Source: an uncultured bacterium
GTDB lineage: Bacteria > Bacillota_I > Bacilli_A > RF39 > UBA660
DNA length: 60,533 nucleotides
Direction: 5' to 3'
NCBI GenBank assembly: GCA_946643435.1
Contig: CAMPCD010000004.1
Location: 1-60,533, forward strand
Each line of letters begins with the position of its first letter. Within the stretch, counting starts at the first letter, position 1. The notes under the pieces were generated by a model, which had not been told where the DNA came from, ran no database searches, and worked only from the letters and a program-made list of their open reading frames with translations. Position numbers and translations under genes: made by a program. Shown here piece after piece: positions 227 through 33,012 of this stretch.

Positions 227-1763
227 GTCTTCTTGCTCCCCTAGTCTTGATATCTTCACTAGAAACTGTTTTAGAAAATACCATAGTTTCAAGTGTTGGT
301 TTTCTAGATGCTAATACTTTATGTAAATTATCAGCCCAGTTTTCAGTATGATATTTTCTTATTATATCTGGATTATCTGTATTTCTAATATAATCTATTA
401 TTTCCGGTCTATCCTTTTGAATAAATTCAACAAAATTATCTTTAGTCATGATATATGTTGCAGCTGGTTTAGCAGGAGTACCATCTAATTCATAGAATTT
501 TTCAAATGCTACATATCCATTTTCATAAATAAAACCAACATATCCCTCAAATTTATCTTTACCTATCATTTGACATACATAATTAGTTTCTTCAAATACC
601 AATTTTCTTTTAATAACTTGATTAGGATCTATTTCTTTTTTATTACTATTTTTACGTCTAGTTGTTTTTCCTTGTTTAGCATCTCTTTCAACTGTTCCTT
701 TTGGAAGTATTTCAAATTCAGTTTCAATTATTTTTTGTTGTTCTTCACTTAATACTCTTACAAGTTTTTCATAATTATCATGATTACGTTCTAATCCTAA
801 TTCTTTTAAGTCATCTACTGGTATTGCACTACCTTTTTCAATATCATCAGGACATTTAGCACAATATTTTTTATAGTCCTTAGTTAAATCTTTAAAAGTA
901 TAATTTACTATTTTTCTTGAGTTTTTATCATACACTTTAATAGATGGATTGTAATTCTTTATTCCACATTGAGCTAAAGCAGTCATGACTTGAGAAATTA
1001 ATACAAATGAAGTATCTAGTTGACCTTTTGTTCTTATTGTATGTGGTTGGTTATCAATTATAGCCTTACAATACATTAAAATAAACTTATCAGGATCATA
1101 ACAAGATCTAAATTCTCTTTCAGATACTTTAACTCCATTCTTAGTTAAATCTGTTATACATAAACAAATATATTTAATTTTAGATATAGAATCTATATAT
1201 CTTTTTAAGTTATCATCAGTCATTTCTCTATTAAAAGAATCGAATCTAAACTTAATATCATCATAATATGGAGATTCTTCTTTATTCTTTAATACATCTC
1301 TTAATTTAGTTCTTAATTCTTTATAATAATTTAAACACATATTTGCAAAATCATCTTCACTCTTATCTACTCCATTTGCAAATATAGATTTATCTTCCAT
1401 TATATTATAAATAGTCGCTAATAAAGAAAACTCTAGATGTCTTCCGTCTCCTTCTTTATTCATCATATTTACTAATAATGGATTAATAAATTTATTAATA
1501 TAAGGAGCATACTCAGGAGCATGAAAATTAAATAATAGTTTTCTATCTATTAAAGATTGATACTTATTATTACCTTTTTCATCAACTAGAGAATTTAATA
1601 CTAACATATCATGAGCACTATTATACTCAAAATCCTTAAATGAATTATCTCCAAATATATAATCTCCATCAAATGTAATTAAAGGATTAATTATATTATA
1701 ATGGTCTAAAATAAATTCTCTAAAGTCTTCTAAATTGTTCTCAAAACCCTCTTGTCTTTTCAT
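210..1763 (-). CDS. Hypothetical cytoplasmic protein (517 aa), no family assignable
   Basis: Long ORF with SD AAGGGGTG about 6 nt before the ATG. No signal peptide or TM segment. Own terminator. Diverges from the tRNA-Met promoter region. Confidence 0.7.
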   Translation of the reverse strand: MKRQEGFENNLEDFREFILDHYNIINPLITFDGDYIFGDNSFKDFEYNSAHDMLVLNSLVDEKGNNKYQSLIDRKLLFNFHAPEYAPYINKFINPLLVNMMNKEGDGRHLEFSLLATIYNIMEDKSIFANGVDKSEDDFANMCLNYYKELRTKLRDVLKNKEESPYYDDIKFRFDSFNREMTDDNLKRYIDSISKIKYICLCITDLTKNGVKVSEREFRSCYDPDKFILMYCKAIIDNQPHTIRTKGQLDTSFVLISQVMTALAQCGIKNYNPSIKVYDKNSRKIVNYTFKDLTKDYKKYCAKCPDDIEKGSAIPVDDLKELGLERNHDNYEKLVRVLSEEQQKIIETEFEILPKGTVERDAKQGKTTRRKNSNKKEIDPNQVIKRKLVFEETNYVCQMIGKDKFEGYVGFIYENGYVAFEKFYELDGTPAKPAATYIMTKDNFVEFIQKDRPEIIDYIRNTDNPDIIRKYHTENWADNLHKVLASRKPTLETMVFSKTVSSEDIKTRGARRQSDSK

Positions 1764-1824
1764 TCTTTACACCCCTTAAATCGTTATATAGCATAACATA
1801 TTTGCTATAAAAAAGCAAAATCTA

Positions 1825-1853
1825 TTGATTTATGATAATTAATATGATATTAT
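1825..1853 (+). promoter_or_regulatory. Sigma-A type promoter of tRNA-Met
   Basis: TTGATT (1825-1830), 17-nt spacer, TATTAT (1848-1853) with TG at the extended -10 position. The tRNA starts 14 nt downstream. Confidence 0.55.
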
Positions 1854-1866
1854 TTAACATGTACAT

Positions 1867-1943
1867 GGCGATGTAGCTCAGTTGGCTAGAGCACCCGGTT
1901 CATACCCGGTAGGTCGTGAGTTCGAATCTCTCCGTCGCTACCA
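1867..1943 (+). tRNA. tRNA-Met (anticodon CAT; an Ile2/lysidine type cannot be excluded)
   Basis: Cloverleaf folded by hand: acceptor GGCGATG/CGTCGCT, D-arm GCTC..GAGC, anticodon loop TTCATAC, T-loop TTCGAAT, encoded CCA. Closely resembles the Bacillus elongator tRNA-Met as I recall it. Confidence 0.85.
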
Positions 1944-1954
1944 TTTGAAATTAT

Positions 1955-1979
1955 CTAACTAGAAATAGTTAGTTTTTTT
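1955..1979 (+). terminator. Terminator after tRNA-Met
   Basis: CTAACTA-GAAA-TAGTTAG hairpin followed by T7. Confidence 0.7.
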
Positions 1980-2077
1980 GTATTTAAATATATGACGTTA
2001 TAATAAAAAACTAATTTGATTACCATTATTTGTTGTGTTATTATATTATCAGTTTCTTACAAAGGGGTATTAAAAAA

Positions 2078-26759: not shown

Positions 26760-26791
26760 AACAATAAAAGGAAAGTAACAACTTTCCTTTT
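26760..26791 (-). terminator. Rho-independent terminator
   Basis: AAAAGGAAAGT-AACA-ACTTTCCTTTT hairpin (26766-26791). Confidence 0.6.
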
Positions 26792-26900
26792 ATCTTAAGA
26801 GATTATATCAAAAACCGACATATCTTGAAAAATTATTAGTATCAAACCAATCCCCTTCAAGACAAGTCATAATATAACACCAATTAATATGGTTGTCAAA

Positions 26901-27425
26901 TCAGGAAATACTAATGCTATTAACTAATCTTGCAAGATATACTATTTGTTTATCATTAGTACCTTTTTTACAAGTTATTAATATAAGATTATTCTTAGAA
27001 TCATCAATATTAATACTTATCTTACCTGTTTTATCTACTATTTCAGATTTATATATTTCATATTCATATTTATTACCTTGATAATAAATATATGCAAGAT
27101 CATTATTATCTAATACTTCTAATCTTTTAAAGAATGATACTTTAGTATTACCATTATGAGAAGCTAATATAACATTACCTCTTCCTGGCATAGATGATGA
27201 TGGTAATATTTTAATATTTTTATCTACATCATTATATTCACTATTAATATCATATATTTCCTTTTTTAGTTTTATTTTAGGTATTTCTAATATCATGAAA
27301 TAATTATTATTACTTACTTCTATATTAGATTCTTTATATGAATTAATATTTACTTTATTAAACAAACTAATAATTATAAGTAATATTAATATCCTAATAG
27401 ATTTTCTTAACAATAAACACTCCAA
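26901..27425 (-). CDS. Sortase (small, dedicated to the upstream adhesin)
   Basis: N-terminal TM segment. Catalytic His in LASHNG, Cys in LITCKK (TLxTC-like), Arg in YLARL. Start uncertain (TTG at 27425 or 27413). Overlaps the end of the adhesin gene. Confidence 0.8.
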   Translation of the reverse strand: MECLLLRKSIRILILLIIISLFNKVNINSYKESNIEVSNNNYFMILEIPKIKLKKEIYDINSEYNDVDKNIKILPSSSMPGRGNVILASHNGNTKVSFFKRLEVLDNNDLAYIYYQGNKYEYEIYKSEIVDKTGKISINIDDSKNNLILITCKKGTNDKQIVYLARLVNSISIS

Positions 27426-28608
27426 TTATTAATACAAATAGATAAGAATAATCATATTTATTTGTATTAGGTACATCTTCTATTATTAAATTATATGTAT
27501 TATCATCTATTTCTTCTATATCATTCAATAATGTTTCATCCATAGTTATTTCTTCATTAATAGAATTATTTATCTTTTCATCAAATAATAAGATATTGTA
27601 ATAACTATTGTCATCATCAAATGCAATTGTATAAATTGTATCATCTAACAAATATCCATCCGGTGAAACTAATTCCTGTAAATAATATGTTCCTATAGGT
27701 AAATCATTTATATAAGTGCTTTCTTTATCACTAATAGGCACTTCTTTTATAAGTTCATGATTACTATCATATATTCCATATATAGAGCCATCTAGTTTTT
27801 CATTTGTTTCTTTATCTAATTTAGACAAATATAAGTCACAGCCAAATATATTTATTTCATCATCACCTAATAATCTATCTAAGTTACCTCTTATTAATAA
27901 ATCTTGTCCATCATCGCTTTTATAAATAGCATATTTATCTAAATGATCATATCCTAAATAATACTTTAATGAATATCTACCTATTTTATCAAAATTACTT
28001 ACTTTAATACCTGTATCTGTTCTTTCAATATTAAACATATCATCATATTCTATTTTCATGCCATTAAAGTATAAAGATGGCTCAATAATAAGTTTATTAT
28101 TACTACCTAATAATACTTTTGCAGATAGTTGTTCACTCACTCCATACTTATAATTATCAATGGTATTTTCTATCTCATATATATATTTATCAATATTTAA
28201 GATACTTCCTTTACCAAATGGTTCTGTCGAAATAATTATATCTTTATCATTTAATAATTCTTTCCATATTAATACTTGAGTAGCCATATAATATTCTTCT
28301 TCATAATGATTATCAAATTGATAACCAAAGAACATTAAGTCTTCTATTCTTTCTTTATTAATTAAACTAGTTGTATCATCTGATAGATAATAATTAGTCC
28401 CCATTCTTACACCTGGTTCAATACAATAAGCTATACTTTTATTAGCATATACATACATATAGAATGTATCAGAGAAATTTCTTCCTTTATTATTTTTAAA
28501 AGTAAAATAATAATATAGTTTATTCTTTGTTATTTCACTTGCTTTAACATTGTAGAAAGAAAATGATAGTATTGTAATAATTATTAAAATAAGAATACCT
28601 TTCTTCAT
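27394..28608 (-). CDS. Surface adhesin with thioester (TED/TQxA-type) domain, CnaB-like domain and VPNTN cell-wall sorting signal
   Basis: Signal peptide. AYCIEPG (Cys62) plus ATQVLIW (Gln111) match the Cys-Gln thioester-domain signature. CnaB-like segment LSKLDKETNEKLDGSIYGIY...YYLQELVSPDGY. The C-terminus has VPNTN (27460-27474), a hydrophobic stretch and KK. Confidence 0.7.
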   Translation of the reverse strand: MKKGILILIIITILSFSFYNVKASEITKNKLYYYFTFKNNKGRNFSDTFYMYVYANKSIAYCIEPGVRMGTNYYLSDDTTSLINKERIEDLMFFGYQFDNHYEEEYYMATQVLIWKELLNDKDIIISTEPFGKGSILNIDKYIYEIENTIDNYKYGVSEQLSAKVLLGSNNKLIIEPSLYFNGMKIEYDDMFNIERTDTGIKVSNFDKIGRYSLKYYLGYDHLDKYAIYKSDDGQDLLIRGNLDRLLGDDEINIFGCDLYLSKLDKETNEKLDGSIYGIYDSNHELIKEVPISDKESTYINDLPIGTYYLQELVSPDGYLLDDTIYTIAFDDDNSYYNILLFDEKINNSINEEITMDETLLNDIEEIDDNTYNLIIEDVPNTNKYDYSYLFVLIIGVFIVKKIY

Positions 28609-28673
28609 TTATCATACCTCCTTTGTATTACTCCCTCTAATATATATATACAAGATTGATATGATATTTCTCG

Positions 28674-28701
28674 ACAAAAAAAGTAGATTTTCATCTACTT
28701 T
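28674..28701 (-). terminator. Terminator after the arylsulfotransferase-like gene
   Basis: AAAGTAGAT-TTTC-ATCTACTTT hairpin with a T-run on the minus strand. Confidence 0.65.
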
Positions 28702-28702
28702 C

Positions 28703-30724
28703 TTATTTTACTGTTACATATTGTAATGTATCGTATTTATAACCATTTATTACAACAAATACTCTATATTTACCTTTAGGTAGTCCATAGTAATATATTT
28801 GTTTATCAACCATAGAACCAACTTCTCTAGCATTAGCGATATATGCTTCAGAACTAGGTGAAATAAATACTACATCAATTTTATGTGTATCATTTAATGC
28901 AACATTCATACCTAAATAACCATTATTAGCATATACTGGGAATAACATATCTTCTGCTTCTTGATATGATAATGCATCTTCTCTAGATAATTTAGTAAAT
29001 GCATTACTTCTTGTATCAGTAGATACAGCATATCCAGGATTATAGTTCTTTAGTTCATTTAATTTATTAGGTTTAACAGACATATTACCTAAATTATAAA
29101 TATCTGCTTTAACTACTTCGAATTTAGATTCAAGTAAATGTAATTTATGTAATACTTTATCATTTTCATCTAATTCAATAATATAAGTATCATATTTATC
29201 ATTACTGAATTGAGTACATTCAGGATCATCATAATCTACATCTTCAGTGAAATGCCATCCAGATGTAATTAATTTATGTCCTTCAGCTGTATAATTAAAG
29301 CTTGATAAAGCATATGAGAATATTTCATTTCCACCATACTTCCAAACTAATTCAGCTGTCTTATTATTTGCATCTATCTTATATACTTTTGCATATGATT
29401 CATTGTTTCTTATAGTAGAACATTTTTTAGCATCTTCTCTATAAGCATCATATCCATTATCAAATACAGATAAATAACCATCAACTAGTCTTACTGAATG
29501 TTGTCCATGAGTATATGAGAAATTAGCTCCTACACCCTTTAAGAAGTATTCATCAAACTTACTTGACCAATATTTCTTGTCTCCTAAAATCCAATTAATC
29601 TTTTTAGTATCATAATCAATAGATACAATACTATTACAATTTCTTAAACTTAAGATAAAATCATTATTAGCTTCATCATAATAGATTGAATTAATCCATC
29701 CCCAAGTAATATATGTACTTGCTATTTTAGGATCTATTTCATCTACTATATTTCTAACAGACCAATCTTTAACAACATTACCAGATGATCTATCTATTTC
29801 AACAATATAATCTGCCATTGAATCAGATTTCATATCTGATGTTAAGATAACTAAGTTGCCATTAGGCATTTCATAACCATCGTGATGATATCCACCTTCA
29901 ATGTTATATTCATGTACTACTCTACCAAACATGTCGATTTCTACAACACCACCAGTAGAAGTAACATCAGGTCCTAAAGAATATGATGATAATAACATAT
30001 TACCATTAGCAAGCATTGTCATACCTTTAGAGTATCCAACATCTTTTAAATACCATCTAACTTCACCATAGTTATCAAATGCTATAGTTGGAGCACCAAG
30101 TGATGATGTACCAAAATAGAATTGACCATCTATAGTTTTTTCTTCATTTGTTTCAACAACATCATATACATGACCTTCTTGATCAAATCCTTCAACATTA
30201 TATTCGTCTACATTAATAGTAAATGTTTTAGAATCTCCACTTTCAGTAGTAATAACTACTTTATTTTCATATAAACCATATAATCCCCATATAGGAATAA
30301 AATGGTCTTTTGATGATTCAAAAGTTTTAACTATATCATCATCATGTTTACCTTTAATAGTTAAAGTAACTTTTTCATTATTTTTAGTACCAAACATTAA
30401 TATAGCTGTTTGAGGACTAATACCATATGGGTCTTTAACCAATATAGCTTTATCTAAGTTTGGTTTTTCTTTTTTATATCTAGCTAATAACTCATTCCAT
30501 ACTTTATCTTGAGATTCATATATATCATAGTTATCAACTGTGCTTGGAGCATCTTTTAATACCCAAGCAAATTGAGGATCTACCTTTTCACTTGCAGTGA
30601 TCTTTGTTTTATCATTTATAAATATAAAATATATTATAACCACTATTATAGCTACTGCTATTAAAGCAATAGCTATAATATATGGATTAACTTTTGTTGT
30701 TGTCTTTTTATTCTTAGCCATCAT
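28703..30724 (-). CDS. Membrane-anchored arylsulfotransferase (ASST)-like beta-propeller protein
   Basis: N-terminal TM segment. HHDGYEMPNGNLV, DYIVEIDRSSGNVVKDW, WINSIYYDEANNDFILSLRNCNSIVSIDYDTKKINWILG and HGQHSVRL..FDNG follow the ASST family pattern as I recall it. Confidence 0.65.
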   Translation of the reverse strand: MMAKNKKTTTKVNPYIIAIALIAVAIIVVIIYFIFINDKTKITASEKVDPQFAWVLKDAPSTVDNYDIYESQDKVWNELLARYKKEKPNLDKAILVKDPYGISPQTAILMFGTKNNEKVTLTIKGKHDDDIVKTFESSKDHFIPIWGLYGLYENKVVITTESGDSKTFTINVDEYNVEGFDQEGHVYDVVETNEEKTIDGQFYFGTSSLGAPTIAFDNYGEVRWYLKDVGYSKGMTMLANGNMLLSSYSLGPDVTSTGGVVEIDMFGRVVHEYNIEGGYHHDGYEMPNGNLVILTSDMKSDSMADYIVEIDRSSGNVVKDWSVRNIVDEIDPKIASTYITWGWINSIYYDEANNDFILSLRNCNSIVSIDYDTKKINWILGDKKYWSSKFDEYFLKGVGANFSYTHGQHSVRLVDGYLSVFDNGYDAYREDAKKCSTIRNNESYAKVYKIDANNKTAELVWKYGGNEIFSYALSSFNYTAEGHKLITSGWHFTEDVDYDDPECTQFSNDKYDTYIIELDENDKVLHKLHLLESKFEVVKADIYNLGNMSVKPNKLNELKNYNPGYAVSTDTRSNAFTKLSREDALSYQEAEDMLFPVYANNGYLGMNVALNDTHKIDVVFISPSSEAYIANAREVGSMVDKQIYYYGLPKGKYRVFVVINGYKYDTLQYVTVK

Positions 30725-30732
30725 GTCACCTC

Positions 30733-33012
30733 TTAATTACAGTTAGATGCAATTCTATATGGATTAGCATCACTACCATCACCAGAACATACTCTAGCAC
30801 TATTCTTATTCATTAAATGCATAGTTCTGAAAGGATAAGATGCACCAGTATAAATTGCTTTCTTAGTTATTGTTCCATTAGCACCATAACCAGTAACTAC
30901 ATAATAGTAATAGTTGTATCTAGTAGTTGACCATGAAGGACCATGAACTGAAATAGTAAATCCAGAAGATCCAGATTGAGAAATCCAATATGATGGAGTT
31001 AAAGCATTTAAGAATAACTTAGCATCTGTTTCAGTAGGTATTGCTGAATATCCAGTATAATTACCTTGGTTATCTGAAGCAAATGTTGCTCTACCAAACA
31101 TATTATCTGATGAACATGTATCTATATCAGAATCTACATTAGCTATACCAGTCTTAAATGAATTCCATACAGTAGATGAATATGTATAACTTGTAGAATA
31201 ATATCCATCACATGTTTGAGTTCCCCAAGAACCTGTTCTAGTAACAACTGTACCAGATAAGTTATATGATTTTGATTTATCAGTTAATACTGTAGCACCA
31301 CTTGTTCTACCTAATACAGTAAATGTTTTATCTCTATAAGCTACTGTTTTTACTTTATTACAATAATAACAATTCATTGAACCTAGGGCTTTAGAATTTC
31401 CACCAGCTTTACAACTTGTATTACAATCTGTACCTACATTTGTACCAATTATTGAATATAAGTTATTAGTTATATTAACGTTAACAGCTACCCAAGGGCC
31501 TGCAAAACCTTCTGCATTAACAGGTCTAATATATGCTGTTTGCTTATCATTAGCTACATTTGCACAATTTGAAACAGGAGTTTCACTTATTGCACTAAAT
31601 GTTTTACTTGTTACACCAGATGGGTTTCTAGGAAGATCAGTATATGAAGCTTGATCATAACTTGTTTGATATCTAACTACACCTATTGGCGAATAAGTAT
31701 CACCAATAGTTATTGTTCTTTTTAAATCAATATCACCTGCACCAGTAGAACTACCACTTATTTTACAATTAGGTATTACTAAGTCTTGAGCAATTAATAC
31801 ATTTGCTTCACTATTTAATTGATAGTTTGTAATGTAATGTCCTCTAGCAGTCATCTTAATGTTATACATGTTGCTACCATCTCTTACGTAATAAATCTTA
31901 CTGAAATCATTACTATTAGTAGCAAGATTCTCTGTAACAGGATTATTAGCTATATAATTAGTTGATCCATATTTAGATCTTGTTATAGTATAAGTTGAAT
32001 TAGATGAATCTGCACCAACTAATGTAGGTCTAAATGCCAATACTTTATAATTAGTACAATCTGATGTAGTTGGTTCATATTGATGATACATAGTAGTATG
32101 AGTATCCATAGAACCTGTTCCATATGTATTTGTATATTTATTACCATTATTAAATGCAGTTGATGAAATTTCTGGTCTTGCTTGATTTAATGGATTAGCA
32201 GCAACAGTTACTTCTCTAACCTCTAAATCAGGAGCAAATGTATCTAATACTACTATATTTCTTGTAAATTCTTTTGGAGTACCAGATGAAGATATAAATG
32301 AATAAGTAATTCTATATGTACCTGCTTCATCCATATATTTCATTTTACCTTTTGATGTAGTTGTTCCACCTTCACCAATGTAAGAAATATTTCTAATTAA
32401 ATTAGAACCACCATGATTCTTAGACCAATCATTAACATCGTTCCATTCTTTCCAACCTGGTGCATATTTACAAGTAAAATGATATTTATTTATTAATTCA
32501 TCACGATTTGTAACTATATTACCATTTTCATCACTTATACTTAACTTGTAAGTACCAATACCATTCATACAGTCATATGGTTCACCAAATACTACATAGT
32601 CATCTAATGCTACTAAGTATTGTTCTTTATCACTGCTTTCAGCAGGATATTCAAATTTTAAAGCACCTGATGATGTATCTAGTATTGCTTTAATTAATTC
32701 AGTCTTACTGATTATTTCTCCAGTATATGGATTAGTAAGTTTTTCATCTAAATAACCACCAGCAATAACATCACCTGTAGTTATATACATATATGCTTTA
32801 TCAACATACAAGTTTGAAAATACATCACTATTTTGAGAAGCATAAGCATTTGCTGCACTCAAAACACTCTCTCTAAATTGTTGATATTCTCTATCCTTAG
32901 AATTTTTAGAGATATTTGTCATATTAATAATTATTATTGTTGCTACTATACCTAAAAGGATAATAGTAACTAACAATTCTGTTAAAGTAAAACCTTTTGA
33001 ATTTCTTTTCAT
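30733..33012 (-). CDS. Large modular type IV pilin/pseudopilin-like protein (759 aa)
   Basis: Class III signal MKRNSKG|FTLTELLVTIILLGIV with Glu at +5. A pilin-like globular head of about 125 aa is followed by about 630 aa rich in Ser/Thr/Asn/Tyr/Gly and Cys. Confidence 0.75.
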   Translation of the reverse strand: MKRNSKGFTLTELLVTIILLGIVATIIIINMTNISKNSKDREYQQFRESVLSAANAYASQNSDVFSNLYVDKAYMYITTGDVIAGGYLDEKLTNPYTGEIISKTELIKAILDTSSGALKFEYPAESSDKEQYLVALDDYVVFGEPYDCMNGIGTYKLSISDENGNIVTNRDELINKYHFTCKYAPGWKEWNDVNDWSKNHGGSNLIRNISYIGEGGTTTSKGKMKYMDEAGTYRITYSFISSSGTPKEFTRNIVVLDTFAPDLEVREVTVAANPLNQARPEISSTAFNNGNKYTNTYGTGSMDTHTTMYHQYEPTTSDCTNYKVLAFRPTLVGADSSNSTYTITRSKYGSTNYIANNPVTENLATNSNDFSKIYYVRDGSNMYNIKMTARGHYITNYQLNSEANVLIAQDLVIPNCKISGSSTGAGDIDLKRTITIGDTYSPIGVVRYQTSYDQASYTDLPRNPSGVTSKTFSAISETPVSNCANVANDKQTAYIRPVNAEGFAGPWVAVNVNITNNLYSIIGTNVGTDCNTSCKAGGNSKALGSMNCYYCNKVKTVAYRDKTFTVLGRTSGATVLTDKSKSYNLSGTVVTRTGSWGTQTCDGYYSTSYTYSSTVWNSFKTGIANVDSDIDTCSSDNMFGRATFASDNQGNYTGYSAIPTETDAKLFLNALTPSYWISQSGSSGFTISVHGPSWSTTRYNYYYYVVTGYGANGTITKKAIYTGASYPFRTMHLMNKNSARVCSGDGSDANPYRIASNCN

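Follow-up and report, generated by a model that had tools for sequence, protein, structure and literature searches.

A Class II thioester-domain adhesin overlapped by a small sortase with glutamine at the canonical arginine position in an uncultured bacterium

Introduction

The TIE proteins BaTIE (B. anthracis BA5258; 6fwv), SaTIE (its TED, 6fx6) and EfmTIE86 (PMC6194298) are the closest described relatives of the adhesin considered here. They possess a signal peptide, a YC-Φ-ζ cysteine motif, a TQxxΦW helix, a CnaB-type stalk of three to five domains and a C-terminal LPATG sorting signal that is handled by the housekeeping sortase SrtA. In the Class II thioester domains (TEDs) solved in Miller 2018, the bond-forming glutamine lies on strand Q, ~170–205 residues past the cysteine; crystallography identified Gln467 of SaTIE as the bond partner, and TQxxΦW is an auxiliary motif (PMC6194298). 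TIEpLS20, the product of gene 34 of the B. subtilis plasmid pLS20, likewise has CnaB-type domains behind a Class II TED, lacks a sorting signal and is sortase-independent. This conjugation adhesin shows that adhesins of this kind can be directed at other bacteria instead of a host (PMC8092201).

All sortases are said to carry a His-Cys-Arg triad, and Arg-to-Ala mutants of the studied enzymes lose most of their activity (PMC13257024, a 2026 paper). The canonical comparators used here are B. anthracis SrtA (BaSrtA; 2kw8, 2rui), C. perfringens SrtD (4d70) and the class C pilus sortases 6ixz and 24rr. Two further systems bear on the sorting signal, both served by class B sortases with a normal Arg. 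S. aureus SrtB and its substrate IsdC, with NPQTN, provide a precedent for Asn at the fifth position, and S. pyogenes SrtC2 is a dedicated sortase encoded beside Cpa, a TED-bearing adhesin whose signal, VPPTG, starts with Val-Pro.

The window analyzed here is a 60,533-nucleotide stretch of DNA from an uncultured gut or rumen bacterium. It encodes a TED adhesin and an overlapping small sortase, and it is the His/Cys/Gln active site of the latter that makes the locus unusual. In the reading favored here, to which a probability of about 0.68 is assigned, the two genes form a self-contained surface-display unit in which a covalently binding adhesin is anchored to the wall by a dedicated, VPNT-reading Gln-type sortase.

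Results and Discussion

Locus organization

28676..28699, reverse strand: likely upstream terminator, hairpin AGTAGAT-GAAA-ATCTACT with T-run, read from the sequence
28617..28624, reverse strand: ribosome-binding site AAAGGAGG, spaced 8 nt from the adhesin ATG
27394..28608, reverse strand: Class II (TIE-type) TED adhesin gene, 404 aa, stop included; from the open reading frame, Pfam, profile and Foldseek
26901..27425, reverse strand: small His/Cys/Gln sortase gene, 174 aa from TTG 27425; from the open reading frame, Pfam, TIGR01076 and model
26763..26794, reverse strand: intrinsic terminator-like hairpin, ~105 nt past the sortase stop; one site in the scan vs 0.2 expected

The adhesin and sortase genes are real, overlapping and bicistronic, and lie between two terminators. 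An earlier, sequence-only reading of this DNA had placed open reading frames of 404 and 174 codons here with 32 nt in common, and these coordinates were confirmed. With a sortase start at TTG 27413 (170 aa), which is more likely than TTG 27425 (174 aa), the overlap shrinks to 20 nt; the downstream TTG stands 6 nt past a GGAG (27423–27420) and is also the start of a 170-aa database twin, P0094. Residue numbers below follow the 174-aa form.

The upstream hairpin, directly 3′ of the arylsulfotransferase-like gene that precedes the adhesin, is likely a terminator that insulates the unit on that side. It is absent from the consensus terminator scan, its stem having too few G-C pairs. The downstream hairpin closes the unit, which has no third gene past the sortase. 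The gene flanking the unit on its other side encodes a CmpB-family membrane protein, and the partner membrane protein seen in a related cassette (see below) has no homologue anywhere in the 60,533-nt window.

The adhesin head is a Class II thioester domain

28540..28608, reverse strand: Sec signal peptide, residues 1–23 (MKK, hydrophobic core, VKA|SE); sequence, and model helix 2–17
27844..28539, reverse strand: Class II TED, residues ~24–255, head lobe with inserted beta-sandwich; AlphaFold model, profile and fold
28423..28425, reverse strand: predicted thioester Cys62 (motif YCIE), invariant in 38/38 homologues
28264..28281, reverse strand: auxiliary TQxxΦW motif TQVLIW, residues 110–115, with Q111 and W115 invariant; role as in PMC6194298
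27904..27906, reverse strand: predicted thioester Gln235 (GQDLL), Gln in 37/38 homologues

The assignment as a TED/TIE-type adhesin, already proposed from the letters alone, held in a PF08341 search (28.1 bits, cut-off 22; 30.7 bits in the genome-wide search). A profile of adhesin homologues matches BaTIE (6fwv) with an E value of 2.8e-53 and SaTIE-TED (6fx6) with one of 2.5e-32, covering the whole SaTIE-TED. These two Class II structures are also the best Foldseek matches of the AlphaFold model, with a TM score of 0.67 on 6fx6. In that model, a helix at residues 140–156 precedes nine strands within 162–255, which would represent the beta-sandwich inserted after helix alpha3 in the slipknot fold of Class II domains. 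Signal peptidase would be expected to cut at VKA|SE.

Both motifs of the sequence-only reading were found where it had put them, AYCIEPG at residues 60–66 and ATQVLIW at 109–115. The bond it had drawn between Cys62 and Gln111 is not borne out, since Gln111 lies in the TQxxΦW helper motif, the glutamine of which is not the bond partner in solved Class II TEDs (PMC6194298). The predicted pair is instead Cys62–Gln235. Cys62, which is preceded by an equally invariant Tyr61, aligns with SaTIE Cys296 (chain residue 47), and in the profile alignment the Gln235 column corresponds to SaTIE Gln467 (chain residue 218). The two residues are 173 positions apart in the adhesin vs 171 in SaTIE. As in TIE proteins, the putative bond-forming Gln thus stands ~170 residues downstream, on a strand returning through the inserted beta-sandwich, and the head would be expected to form a thioester.

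The remaining features of TIE proteins listed above also recur in the adhesin. It differs from them in being much shorter, with one stalk domain, and shares 14–17% identity with them in fold alignments. Its signal is VPNTN in place of LPATG, and a private sortase encoded by an overlapping gene takes the place of housekeeping SrtA. Unlike TIEpLS20, it combines a sorting signal with a dedicated sortase, and no conjugation operon accompanies it.

Stalk, linker and sorting signal

27574..27840, reverse strand: CnaB/SpaA-type stalk domain, residues 257–345; Pfam SpaA 57.5 bits, pLDDT >90
27475..27573, reverse strand: acidic disordered linker, residues 346–378; sequence, and pLDDT <50 for 349–384
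27460..27474, reverse strand: sorting pentapeptide VPNTN, residues 379–383; column counts in homologues
27397..27459, reverse strand: spacer KYDYS, hydrophobic segment YLFVLIIGVFIV and basic KK, residues 384–404; sequence, and model helix 388–403

The CnaB-like stalk and the tripartite sorting signal (VPNTN at 27474–27460, five-residue spacer, hydrophobic stretch, KK) that the sequence-only reading had described are both present, the former on the SpaA match given above. The stalk probably carries an isopeptide between Lys263 and Asp343 whose formation would be catalyzed by Glu312. Among the 38 homologues, the lysine is conserved in 36 and the glutamate in 37; column 343 is Asn in 24 and Asp in 5. 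The acidic linker likely spans the wall.

The same homologues show which parts of the pentapeptide are under constraint. Position 1 is Val in 23, Met in 9 and Ile in 3; Pro is present in 36/38 and Thr in 35/38, and position 3 is Asn in 20. Position 5 varies among Ser, Lys, Gly, Asn, Tyr, His, Leu and Thr, with Arg, Glu and Ala found elsewhere among relatives. Because this residue varies freely, Asn383 is incidental and the conserved motif is [V/I]-P-x-T. The expected conservation of the C-terminal motif therefore extends to its Pro and Thr and stops short of the fifth residue. Cleavage is predicted between Thr382 and Asn383.

These counts also bear on the proposal of a private pair whose specificity is altered by the terminal Asn. 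The pairing itself stands, recurring in relatives and again within this genome; the Asn-based specificity does not, with Pro and Thr the only conserved positions and position 5 free. VPNTN recurs in a few relatives (P0001, P0003, L040 and L041), and the same-genus orthologue, L008, has Tyr at position 5. Nor did a search of the genome yield the further xPNTN substrates that had been suggested: the second TED protein ends in VPSTG, and the remaining sorting-signal proteins all carry NPxTG, alongside a true class B sortase (170 bits on TIGR03064). VPNTN is accordingly unique to this pair in the surveyed genome, which is ~80% complete, so that the survey of sortases and VPxT substrates may miss further members.

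A sortase with glutamine in place of arginine

27360..27413, reverse strand: N-terminal membrane anchor, residues 5–22; model helix 5–22 and hydrophobic sequence
27156..27158, reverse strand: catalytic His90 (LASHNGN), invariant in 53/53 and aligned with the BaSrtA His
26970..26972, reverse strand: catalytic Cys152 (LILITC) at the end of strand beta7, invariant in 53/53; model strand 146–152
26946..26948, reverse strand: Gln160 (KQIVY) at the canonical Arg position, start of beta8, invariant in 53/53; model strand 159–172

The small enzyme is a sortase by Pfam PF04203 (65.4 bits vs a cut-off of 26.6), by TIGR01076 (49.7 bits vs 39.35) and by its model, which has the sortase fold at pLDDT 89 and matches classes A, C, D, E and F in Foldseek at probability 1.0. 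It resembles the class A, C and D comparators in its eight strands, N-terminal anchor, His and TLxTC-type Cys, and BaSrtA in the short beta7/beta8 loop. It is unlike them in having Gln for Arg at the start of beta8, a V-P-x-T-x signal in place of LPXTG, and one enzyme per substrate encoded in overlapping genes.

Of the His/Cys/Arg triad claimed in the sequence-only reading, His90 and Cys152 proved invariant, and the arginine did not survive comparison. Arg166 (in LARLV), the sole candidate, is not conserved, and the canonical position is occupied by Gln160. Its aligned counterparts are the Arg of SKRYVV in BaSrtA (2kw8), the Arg of class C 6ixz and, without gaps, the Arg of a neighboring sortase, L030. 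In the profile alignment with C. perfringens SrtD, the Arg falls one residue before the Gln, so that exact equivalence is seen in three of the four alignments. Gln occupies the position in 150/150 cluster representatives (the best 150 of 1573). As judged from these alignments, the sortase is a His/Cys/Gln enzyme with no His/Cys/Arg triad.

It is thus very improbable that the locus encodes a canonical His/Cys/Arg sortase that needs Asn at the fifth position and serves an adhesin with a Cys62–Gln111 thioester. R166 and VPNTN do occur together in this one sequence, and VPNTN is shared with the four relatives named above; the fifth residue is nonetheless Tyr in the orthologue and Arg, His, Lys or Glu elsewhere, even among close relatives, and neither R166 nor the proposed bond withstands the comparisons given above.

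The loss of activity in Arg-to-Ala mutants (PMC13257024) suggests that an enzyme with Gln at this position might act slowly or in a different manner. Taken further, it raises an alternative in which the Arg-less protein is a weakened sortase or a pseudo-enzyme with the role of a processing or release protease or of a chaperone, the adhesin being held in the membrane by its C-terminal helix or shed. Several homologue tails in which the basic anchor or a good hydrophobic stretch is missing fit this picture, as does the description of Arg as part of the triad of all sortases. We consider it unlikely. In at least 150 clusters at 50% identity, His, Cys and the TLxTC-like motif do not vary. Nor does the Gln that stands in for Arg, and Pro and Thr of the substrate motif persist together with the sortase. 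The invariance of His, Cys and Gln points to selection on the active site rather than decay.

The enzyme is not readily placed in a described class. Searches with subfamily models reached the general family models, and none of the NCBIfam class cut-offs was attained: the scores were 61.2 bits for class C (cut-off 160), 51.4 for SrtD LPxTATN (140), 47 for class D (165), 23.8 for class E (160) and 22.2 for the GN model (158), the listed matches including neither a class A nor a class F model. The paralogue in the second cassette and the orthologue likewise fall below every class cut-off. Class B membership, for which NPQTN is a precedent, was dropped because the sortase has no class B match; in this, and in the lack of a pilus backbone at the locus, it differs from the SrtB and SrtC2 systems.

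That class C pilus sortases and class D give the best of these scores, all far below cut-off, lends something to another alternative, namely that an active Gln-type sortase joins Thr382 to an acceptor other than the wall, such as the lysine of a surface protein, in pilus-like fashion, or an envelope polymer. Encoding one sortase side by side with one substrate is also a habit of pilus sortases, and S. pyogenes Cpa, a TED tip adhesin with a dedicated sortase and VPPTG, offers a precedent. Such an outcome is nevertheless improbable here. No backbone pilin with a pilin motif, the mark of a sortase-assembled pilus locus, stands beside the sortase or nearby, the only SpaA-domain proteins of the genome are its two TED adhesins, no YPKN-type pilin motif was seen in the adhesin sequence, and the unit is enclosed by terminators.

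Distribution of Gln-type sortases

Gln-type sortases occur in 23/34 genomes of this bacterial family vs 1/266 elsewhere in the class, and TED adhesins in 145/199 genomes of this family of uncultured, small-genome gut and rumen Bacilli. Of 39 related loci, 36 have a sortase gene that overlaps the gene upstream of it, by 4–89 nt, and the upstream products whose tails were read end in [V/I]P-x-T-x followed by a hydrophobic stretch and basic tail residues. A Gln-type sortase therefore nearly always overlaps a gene with a VPxT-type signal. The second TED protein of the genome, with VPSTG, is overlapped by its own Gln-type sortase in a cassette at C2:73751-76741. This cassette shares with the window unit the Gln-type clade, the VPxT-type signal and the gene overlap, and differs in having three genes, the third encoding a membrane protein.

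Phylogenetically, the window sortase and its orthologue L008 fall outside the clade associated with this membrane-protein partner (support 98/92). At 170–174 aa, the window enzyme is among the shortest, compared with ~208–237 aa for the partner-associated ones. It belongs to a lineage, new here, without the membrane-protein third gene. Two Arg sortases encoded beside LPNTG-type TED proteins, L030 and L034, were considered as revertants inside the Gln clade; this was rejected because a very long branch places both of them beyond its limits.

In the open-access literature, no description was found of an Arg-less or His-Cys-Gln sortase group, nor did searches on VPNTN/VPNTG motifs and on sortase classification turn one up, an absence that is no proof of novelty.

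Proposed mechanism and significance

In the favored reading, that of a self-contained unit anchored to the wall, the first gene would yield a Sec-exported Class II TED adhesin whose head forms the Cys62–Gln235 thioester by itself; the TQ111xxΦW115 helix would pack onto this bond. Reaction of the thioester with an amine of the target would link the two covalently. The head would be carried on a single isopeptide-stabilized CnaB/SpaA domain and the acidic linker. Translation of the sortase is coupled to that of the adhesin through the 20–32 nt overlap, and the membrane-anchored enzyme would serve one substrate only, the adjoining adhesin. It is proposed to read V-P-N-T and to cut after Thr382 regardless of the next residue, forming an acyl-enzyme at Cys152 with the aid of His90.

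The adhesin would then be handed to a peptidoglycan precursor, the assumed acceptor, and so be fixed in the cell wall. Genes for penicillin-binding proteins and of MraY type (Glycos_transf_4) are present in the genome and support anchoring to peptidoglycan. The amide of Gln160 most likely takes over from Arg in hydrogen-bonding the substrate backbone or the oxyanion, and may in this way have a catalytic role. Earlier sortase mutagenesis reportedly pointed to hydrogen bonding by the Arg rather than to its charge.

Whether this extends to the whole group is, in our judgment, evenly poised: His/Cys/Gln enzymes may constitute a separate, hitherto undescribed class in which a Gln amide replaces the Arg, V-P-x-T is read with the next residue free, and each enzyme is co-translated with a single substrate. 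If so, the textbook triad would need revision, and the class would furnish an orthogonal ligation enzyme of naturally relaxed specificity. The large, conserved Gln-type clade also amounts to a natural experiment on what the sortase Arg does. The partner-less lineage of the window would, if the reading is right, be the minimal form, with one 170-aa enzyme and one substrate; an enzyme of this size that reads VPxT and tolerates any next residue could be a useful tool for orthogonal ligation. For the reduced bacteria that carry them, covalently binding adhesins are probably important for holding on to host, mucus or other cells.

A search for related loci with the single sortase protein returned two, both from metagenome-assembled genomes of uncultured Bacilli from rabbit.

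Gene layout and proposed function

The sortase of the window is a new variant and the interesting part of the locus. In the reading we favor (probability about 0.68), the adhesin would be exported, fold and form its own thioester and isopeptide bonds, and its C-terminal helix would retain it until the co-expressed sortase acts. The sortase would then cleave after Thr382 and transfer the adhesin to a peptidoglycan precursor, with Gln160 replacing Arg and supplying the hydrogen bonds that normally come from that residue. The locus comprises:

27394-28608, minus strand: adhesin ORF, 404 aa (ORF reading)
26901-27425, minus strand: sortase ORF, 174 aa (ORF reading)
28699-28676, minus strand: hairpin with T-run, 3' of the upstream gene (read from sequence)
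26794-26763, minus strand: terminator-like hairpin, 3' of the sortase gene (scan: 1 site found against 0.2 expected)

Because hairpins lie on both flanks, the adhesin and sortase genes form their own unit. Both ORFs and their 32-nt overlap, counting the 174-aa sortase form, agree with the sequence-only reading, as do the positions it gave for AYCIEPG, ATQVLIW and VPNTN (27474-27460). The adhesin ATG is preceded 8 nt ahead by AAAGGAGG, and a second sortase start candidate, TTG at 27413, has GGAG 6 nt ahead of it. The real overlap is probably 20 nt, because the database twin P0094 (170 aa, 99% identical) begins at the equivalent TTG.

Upstream (28703-33012, minus strand), set apart by the hairpin with T-run, lie two genes. 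One encodes a 673-aa protein of the arylsulfotransferase family that is anchored in the membrane, the other a protein of 759 aa whose N-terminus is that of a type IV prepilin. Two strong promoter-like sites, TTGACA-17-TATATT (11/12 matches) and TTTTCA-18-TATAAT, occur on the minus strand within 26802-26899, downstream of the sortase stop codon and ahead of the terminator.

A glutamine at the catalytic arginine position

His90, Cys152 and Gln160 are invariant among 53 aligned sortase relatives, and R166 of 'LARLV' is not conserved. A His/Cys/Arg triad had been assigned earlier, but it is Gln160 that aligns with the canonical Arg: that of 'SKRYVV' in B. anthracis SrtA 2kw8, where the family profile again places the Gln column, that of class C 6ixz and, without gaps ('ITCKKGTNDKQIV' against 'ITCHKVHKNKRVV'), that of L030, an Arg-bearing sortase adjoining a related TED (thioester domain) protein. 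Alignment to C. perfringens SrtD puts the Gln/Arg pair one residue out of register. When 1.84 billion cluster representatives were scanned in full with HMMER, 1573 sortase relatives emerged (722 at E ≤ 1e-10); in each of the best 150 of these, a Gln stands 5-10 residues past the Cys and leads into a hydrophobic strand.

The enzyme passes the Pfam Sortase (65.4 bits) and generic TIGR01076 cut-offs. It scores far under the cut-off of every class-specific NCBIfam model (class C 61/160, SrtD 51/140, class D 47/165, class E 24/160), and the class B model gives no match. Its structural model is confident (pLDDT 89), with an N-terminal helix (5-22) and a sortase barrel in which strand 146-152 ends in Cys152 and a six-residue loop leads to strand 159-172. 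In Foldseek, sortases of classes E, A, C, D and F all match to a similar degree, with 19-26% identity.

A 2026 paper places a His-Cys-Arg triad in all sortases regardless of class and finds that R200A cripples the enzyme studied (PMC13257024). No description of an arginine-less sortase was found in the open-access literature searched. Earlier work on S. aureus SrtA reportedly suggested that the Arg acts via hydrogen bonding rather than charge, which would make replacement by Gln plausible. Set beside the R200A effect, a weakened sortase, or one with a non-transpeptidase role, may be considered; set beside the invariant Gln160 it seems unlikely, and we favor a transpeptidase in which Gln160 would stand in for Arg.

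One member of the Gln clade, at L058 (G015:C6, sortase 1483-2070, minus strand), has Tyr at the Arg position, and its substrate reads VPNAY, with Ala where Thr is expected. VPNAG is likewise the ending of two homologues, P0020 and P0079, which lack a membrane segment; enzyme and signal may co-vary.

The adhesin and its sorting signal

As a Class II TIE protein, a TED adhesin type, the adhesin is new but ordinary. The proposed thioester domain and CnaB-like stalk are borne out by Pfam (TED, 28.1 bits against a cut-off of 22; SpaA, 57.5 bits), and almost all of 93 relatives from a search of 5.8 billion proteins combine TED and SpaA. Relatives are present in 145/199 genomes of the same family. 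The AlphaFold model (pLDDT 78.7) shows a head lobe, a helix spanning 140-156 and a run of nine strands within 162-255; it also shows a CnaB-like domain predicted with confidence (257-343) and an acidic linker that is disordered. Foldseek ranks two Class II TEDs described by Miller et al. 2018 (PMC6194298) highest: 6fwv, a TIE protein from B. anthracis, and 6fx6, the thioester domain of an S. aureus TIE protein (TM 0.67 on the latter target).

In an alignment of 38 of the 93 relatives, Y61, C62, Q111 and W115 are invariant, and T110, Q235, K263, E312, P380 and T382 almost so. In such domains the Gln that forms the bond sits on strand Q, within a weak ΦQζΦΦ motif and a long way downstream of the Cys (SaTIE Cys296 with Gln467; EfmTIE86 Cys88 with Gln292); TQxxΦW contributes a Gln and a Trp that only pack against this bond and are dispensable (PMC6194298). 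By profile alignment, the family Cys column meets 6fx6 chain residue 47 (Cys296) and the 'sQ' column, Gln235, meets residue 218 (Gln467). Because of this correspondence and the packing role of the TQxxΦW Gln, the predicted thioester is Cys62-Gln235, with Gln111 in the helper motif, in place of the Cys62-Gln111 bond first suggested. K263, E312 and D343 would fit a CnaB isopeptide triad; the D343 column holds N in 24 sequences and D in 5.

The tail reads VPNTN-KYDYS-YLFVLIIGVFIV-KKIY. Among homologues, position 1 is V, M or I, Pro is kept in 36/38 and Thr in 35/38, and position 3 is mostly N or D. The C-terminal motif is thus retained, except that its fifth residue is free. Judged from this alignment, the conserved signal is Φ-P-x-T and the emphasized Asn incidental, because position 5 may be S, K, G, N, Y, H, L or T and the same-genus orthologue L008 ends in VPNTY. 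The canonical version as a whole (His/Cys/Arg sortase, Asn-dependent signal, Cys62-Gln111 thioester) is therefore highly improbable, although its ORFs and domains stand. A subgroup of homologues (P0008-P0010, P0016-P0019; also locus L020) ends VPNT[HS]TNNYLLLEIIKLLLYPW, a very short hydrophobic stretch that no basic residues follow, in contrast to standard sorting signals.

Distribution and pairing

Gln-type sortases occur in 23/34 sampled genomes of the same family, versus 1/266 from the class's other families. The proposed dedicated pairing recurs: the sortase gene overlaps the upstream ORF by 4-89 nt in 36/39 related loci having one, and again in a second cassette of the genome, on contig C2. 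Upstream tails include VPNT[NYRHKESGA], VPDT[AGM], IPDTA, VPSTG/S, VPKTG, VPITG and similar. At L030 (G069) and L034 (G048), small Arg-keeping sortases overlap canonical LPNTG TED proteins, a natural contrast of Arg/LPxTG versus Gln/VPxT from one lineage only.

A polytopic membrane-protein gene (C2:76007-76741, plus strand) comes after the C2 cassette, and its homologues follow 19 related Gln-type sortases; none was found in the 60,533-nt window. What distinguishes the window locus is its minimal two-gene form.

Loci with the partner membrane protein: L037, L043-L045, L047-L050, L052-L057, L059, L064-L066

Among 42 sortases placed in a maximum-likelihood tree, whose root is arbitrary and several of whose branches are long, the partner-associated enzymes form one supported clade (98/92). 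The window sortase groups with L008 (95/81) among partner-less lineages, and L030 and L034 pair up outside the Gln clade (branch length 5, support 100/100).

Other sortases and substrates in the genome

The genome (1.13 Mb, about 80% complete) holds four sortase matches and two TED proteins. Two sortases retain Arg: a true class B enzyme (TIGR03064, 170 bits) and a class-B-like domain ending a 560-aa protein. The remaining two are Gln-type, each overlapping the 3' end of a TED gene.

C11:23836-24582: class B sortase
C2:73751-75391: second TED gene, VPSTG signal
C2:75354-75995: Gln-type sortase of the second TED cassette
C1:90008-91675, C5:42467-44335, C28:87-485, C28:502-1950, C40:3129-4124, C41:5487-5714: six NPxTG proteins

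A C-terminal sorting-signal scan of this ~80%-complete genome found, besides the NPxTG proteins, only the VPSTG of the C2 pair and the VPNTN of the window pair, and no LPXTG protein. Since NPxTG is the general signal and one sortase is truly class B, the 'housekeeping' system seems to belong to class B, not class A. The genome also carries genes for penicillin-binding proteins and genes of MraY type (Glycos_transf_4), so that a wall acceptor should be available; transfer to some other acceptor is improbable beside anchoring to a peptidoglycan precursor.

Directly after the second TED cassette, the unusually long, fused 560-aa sortase protein (C2:76774-78456, minus strand) is extended at its N-terminus by ~290 aa and has a single membrane segment, with the sortase domain at its C-terminus.
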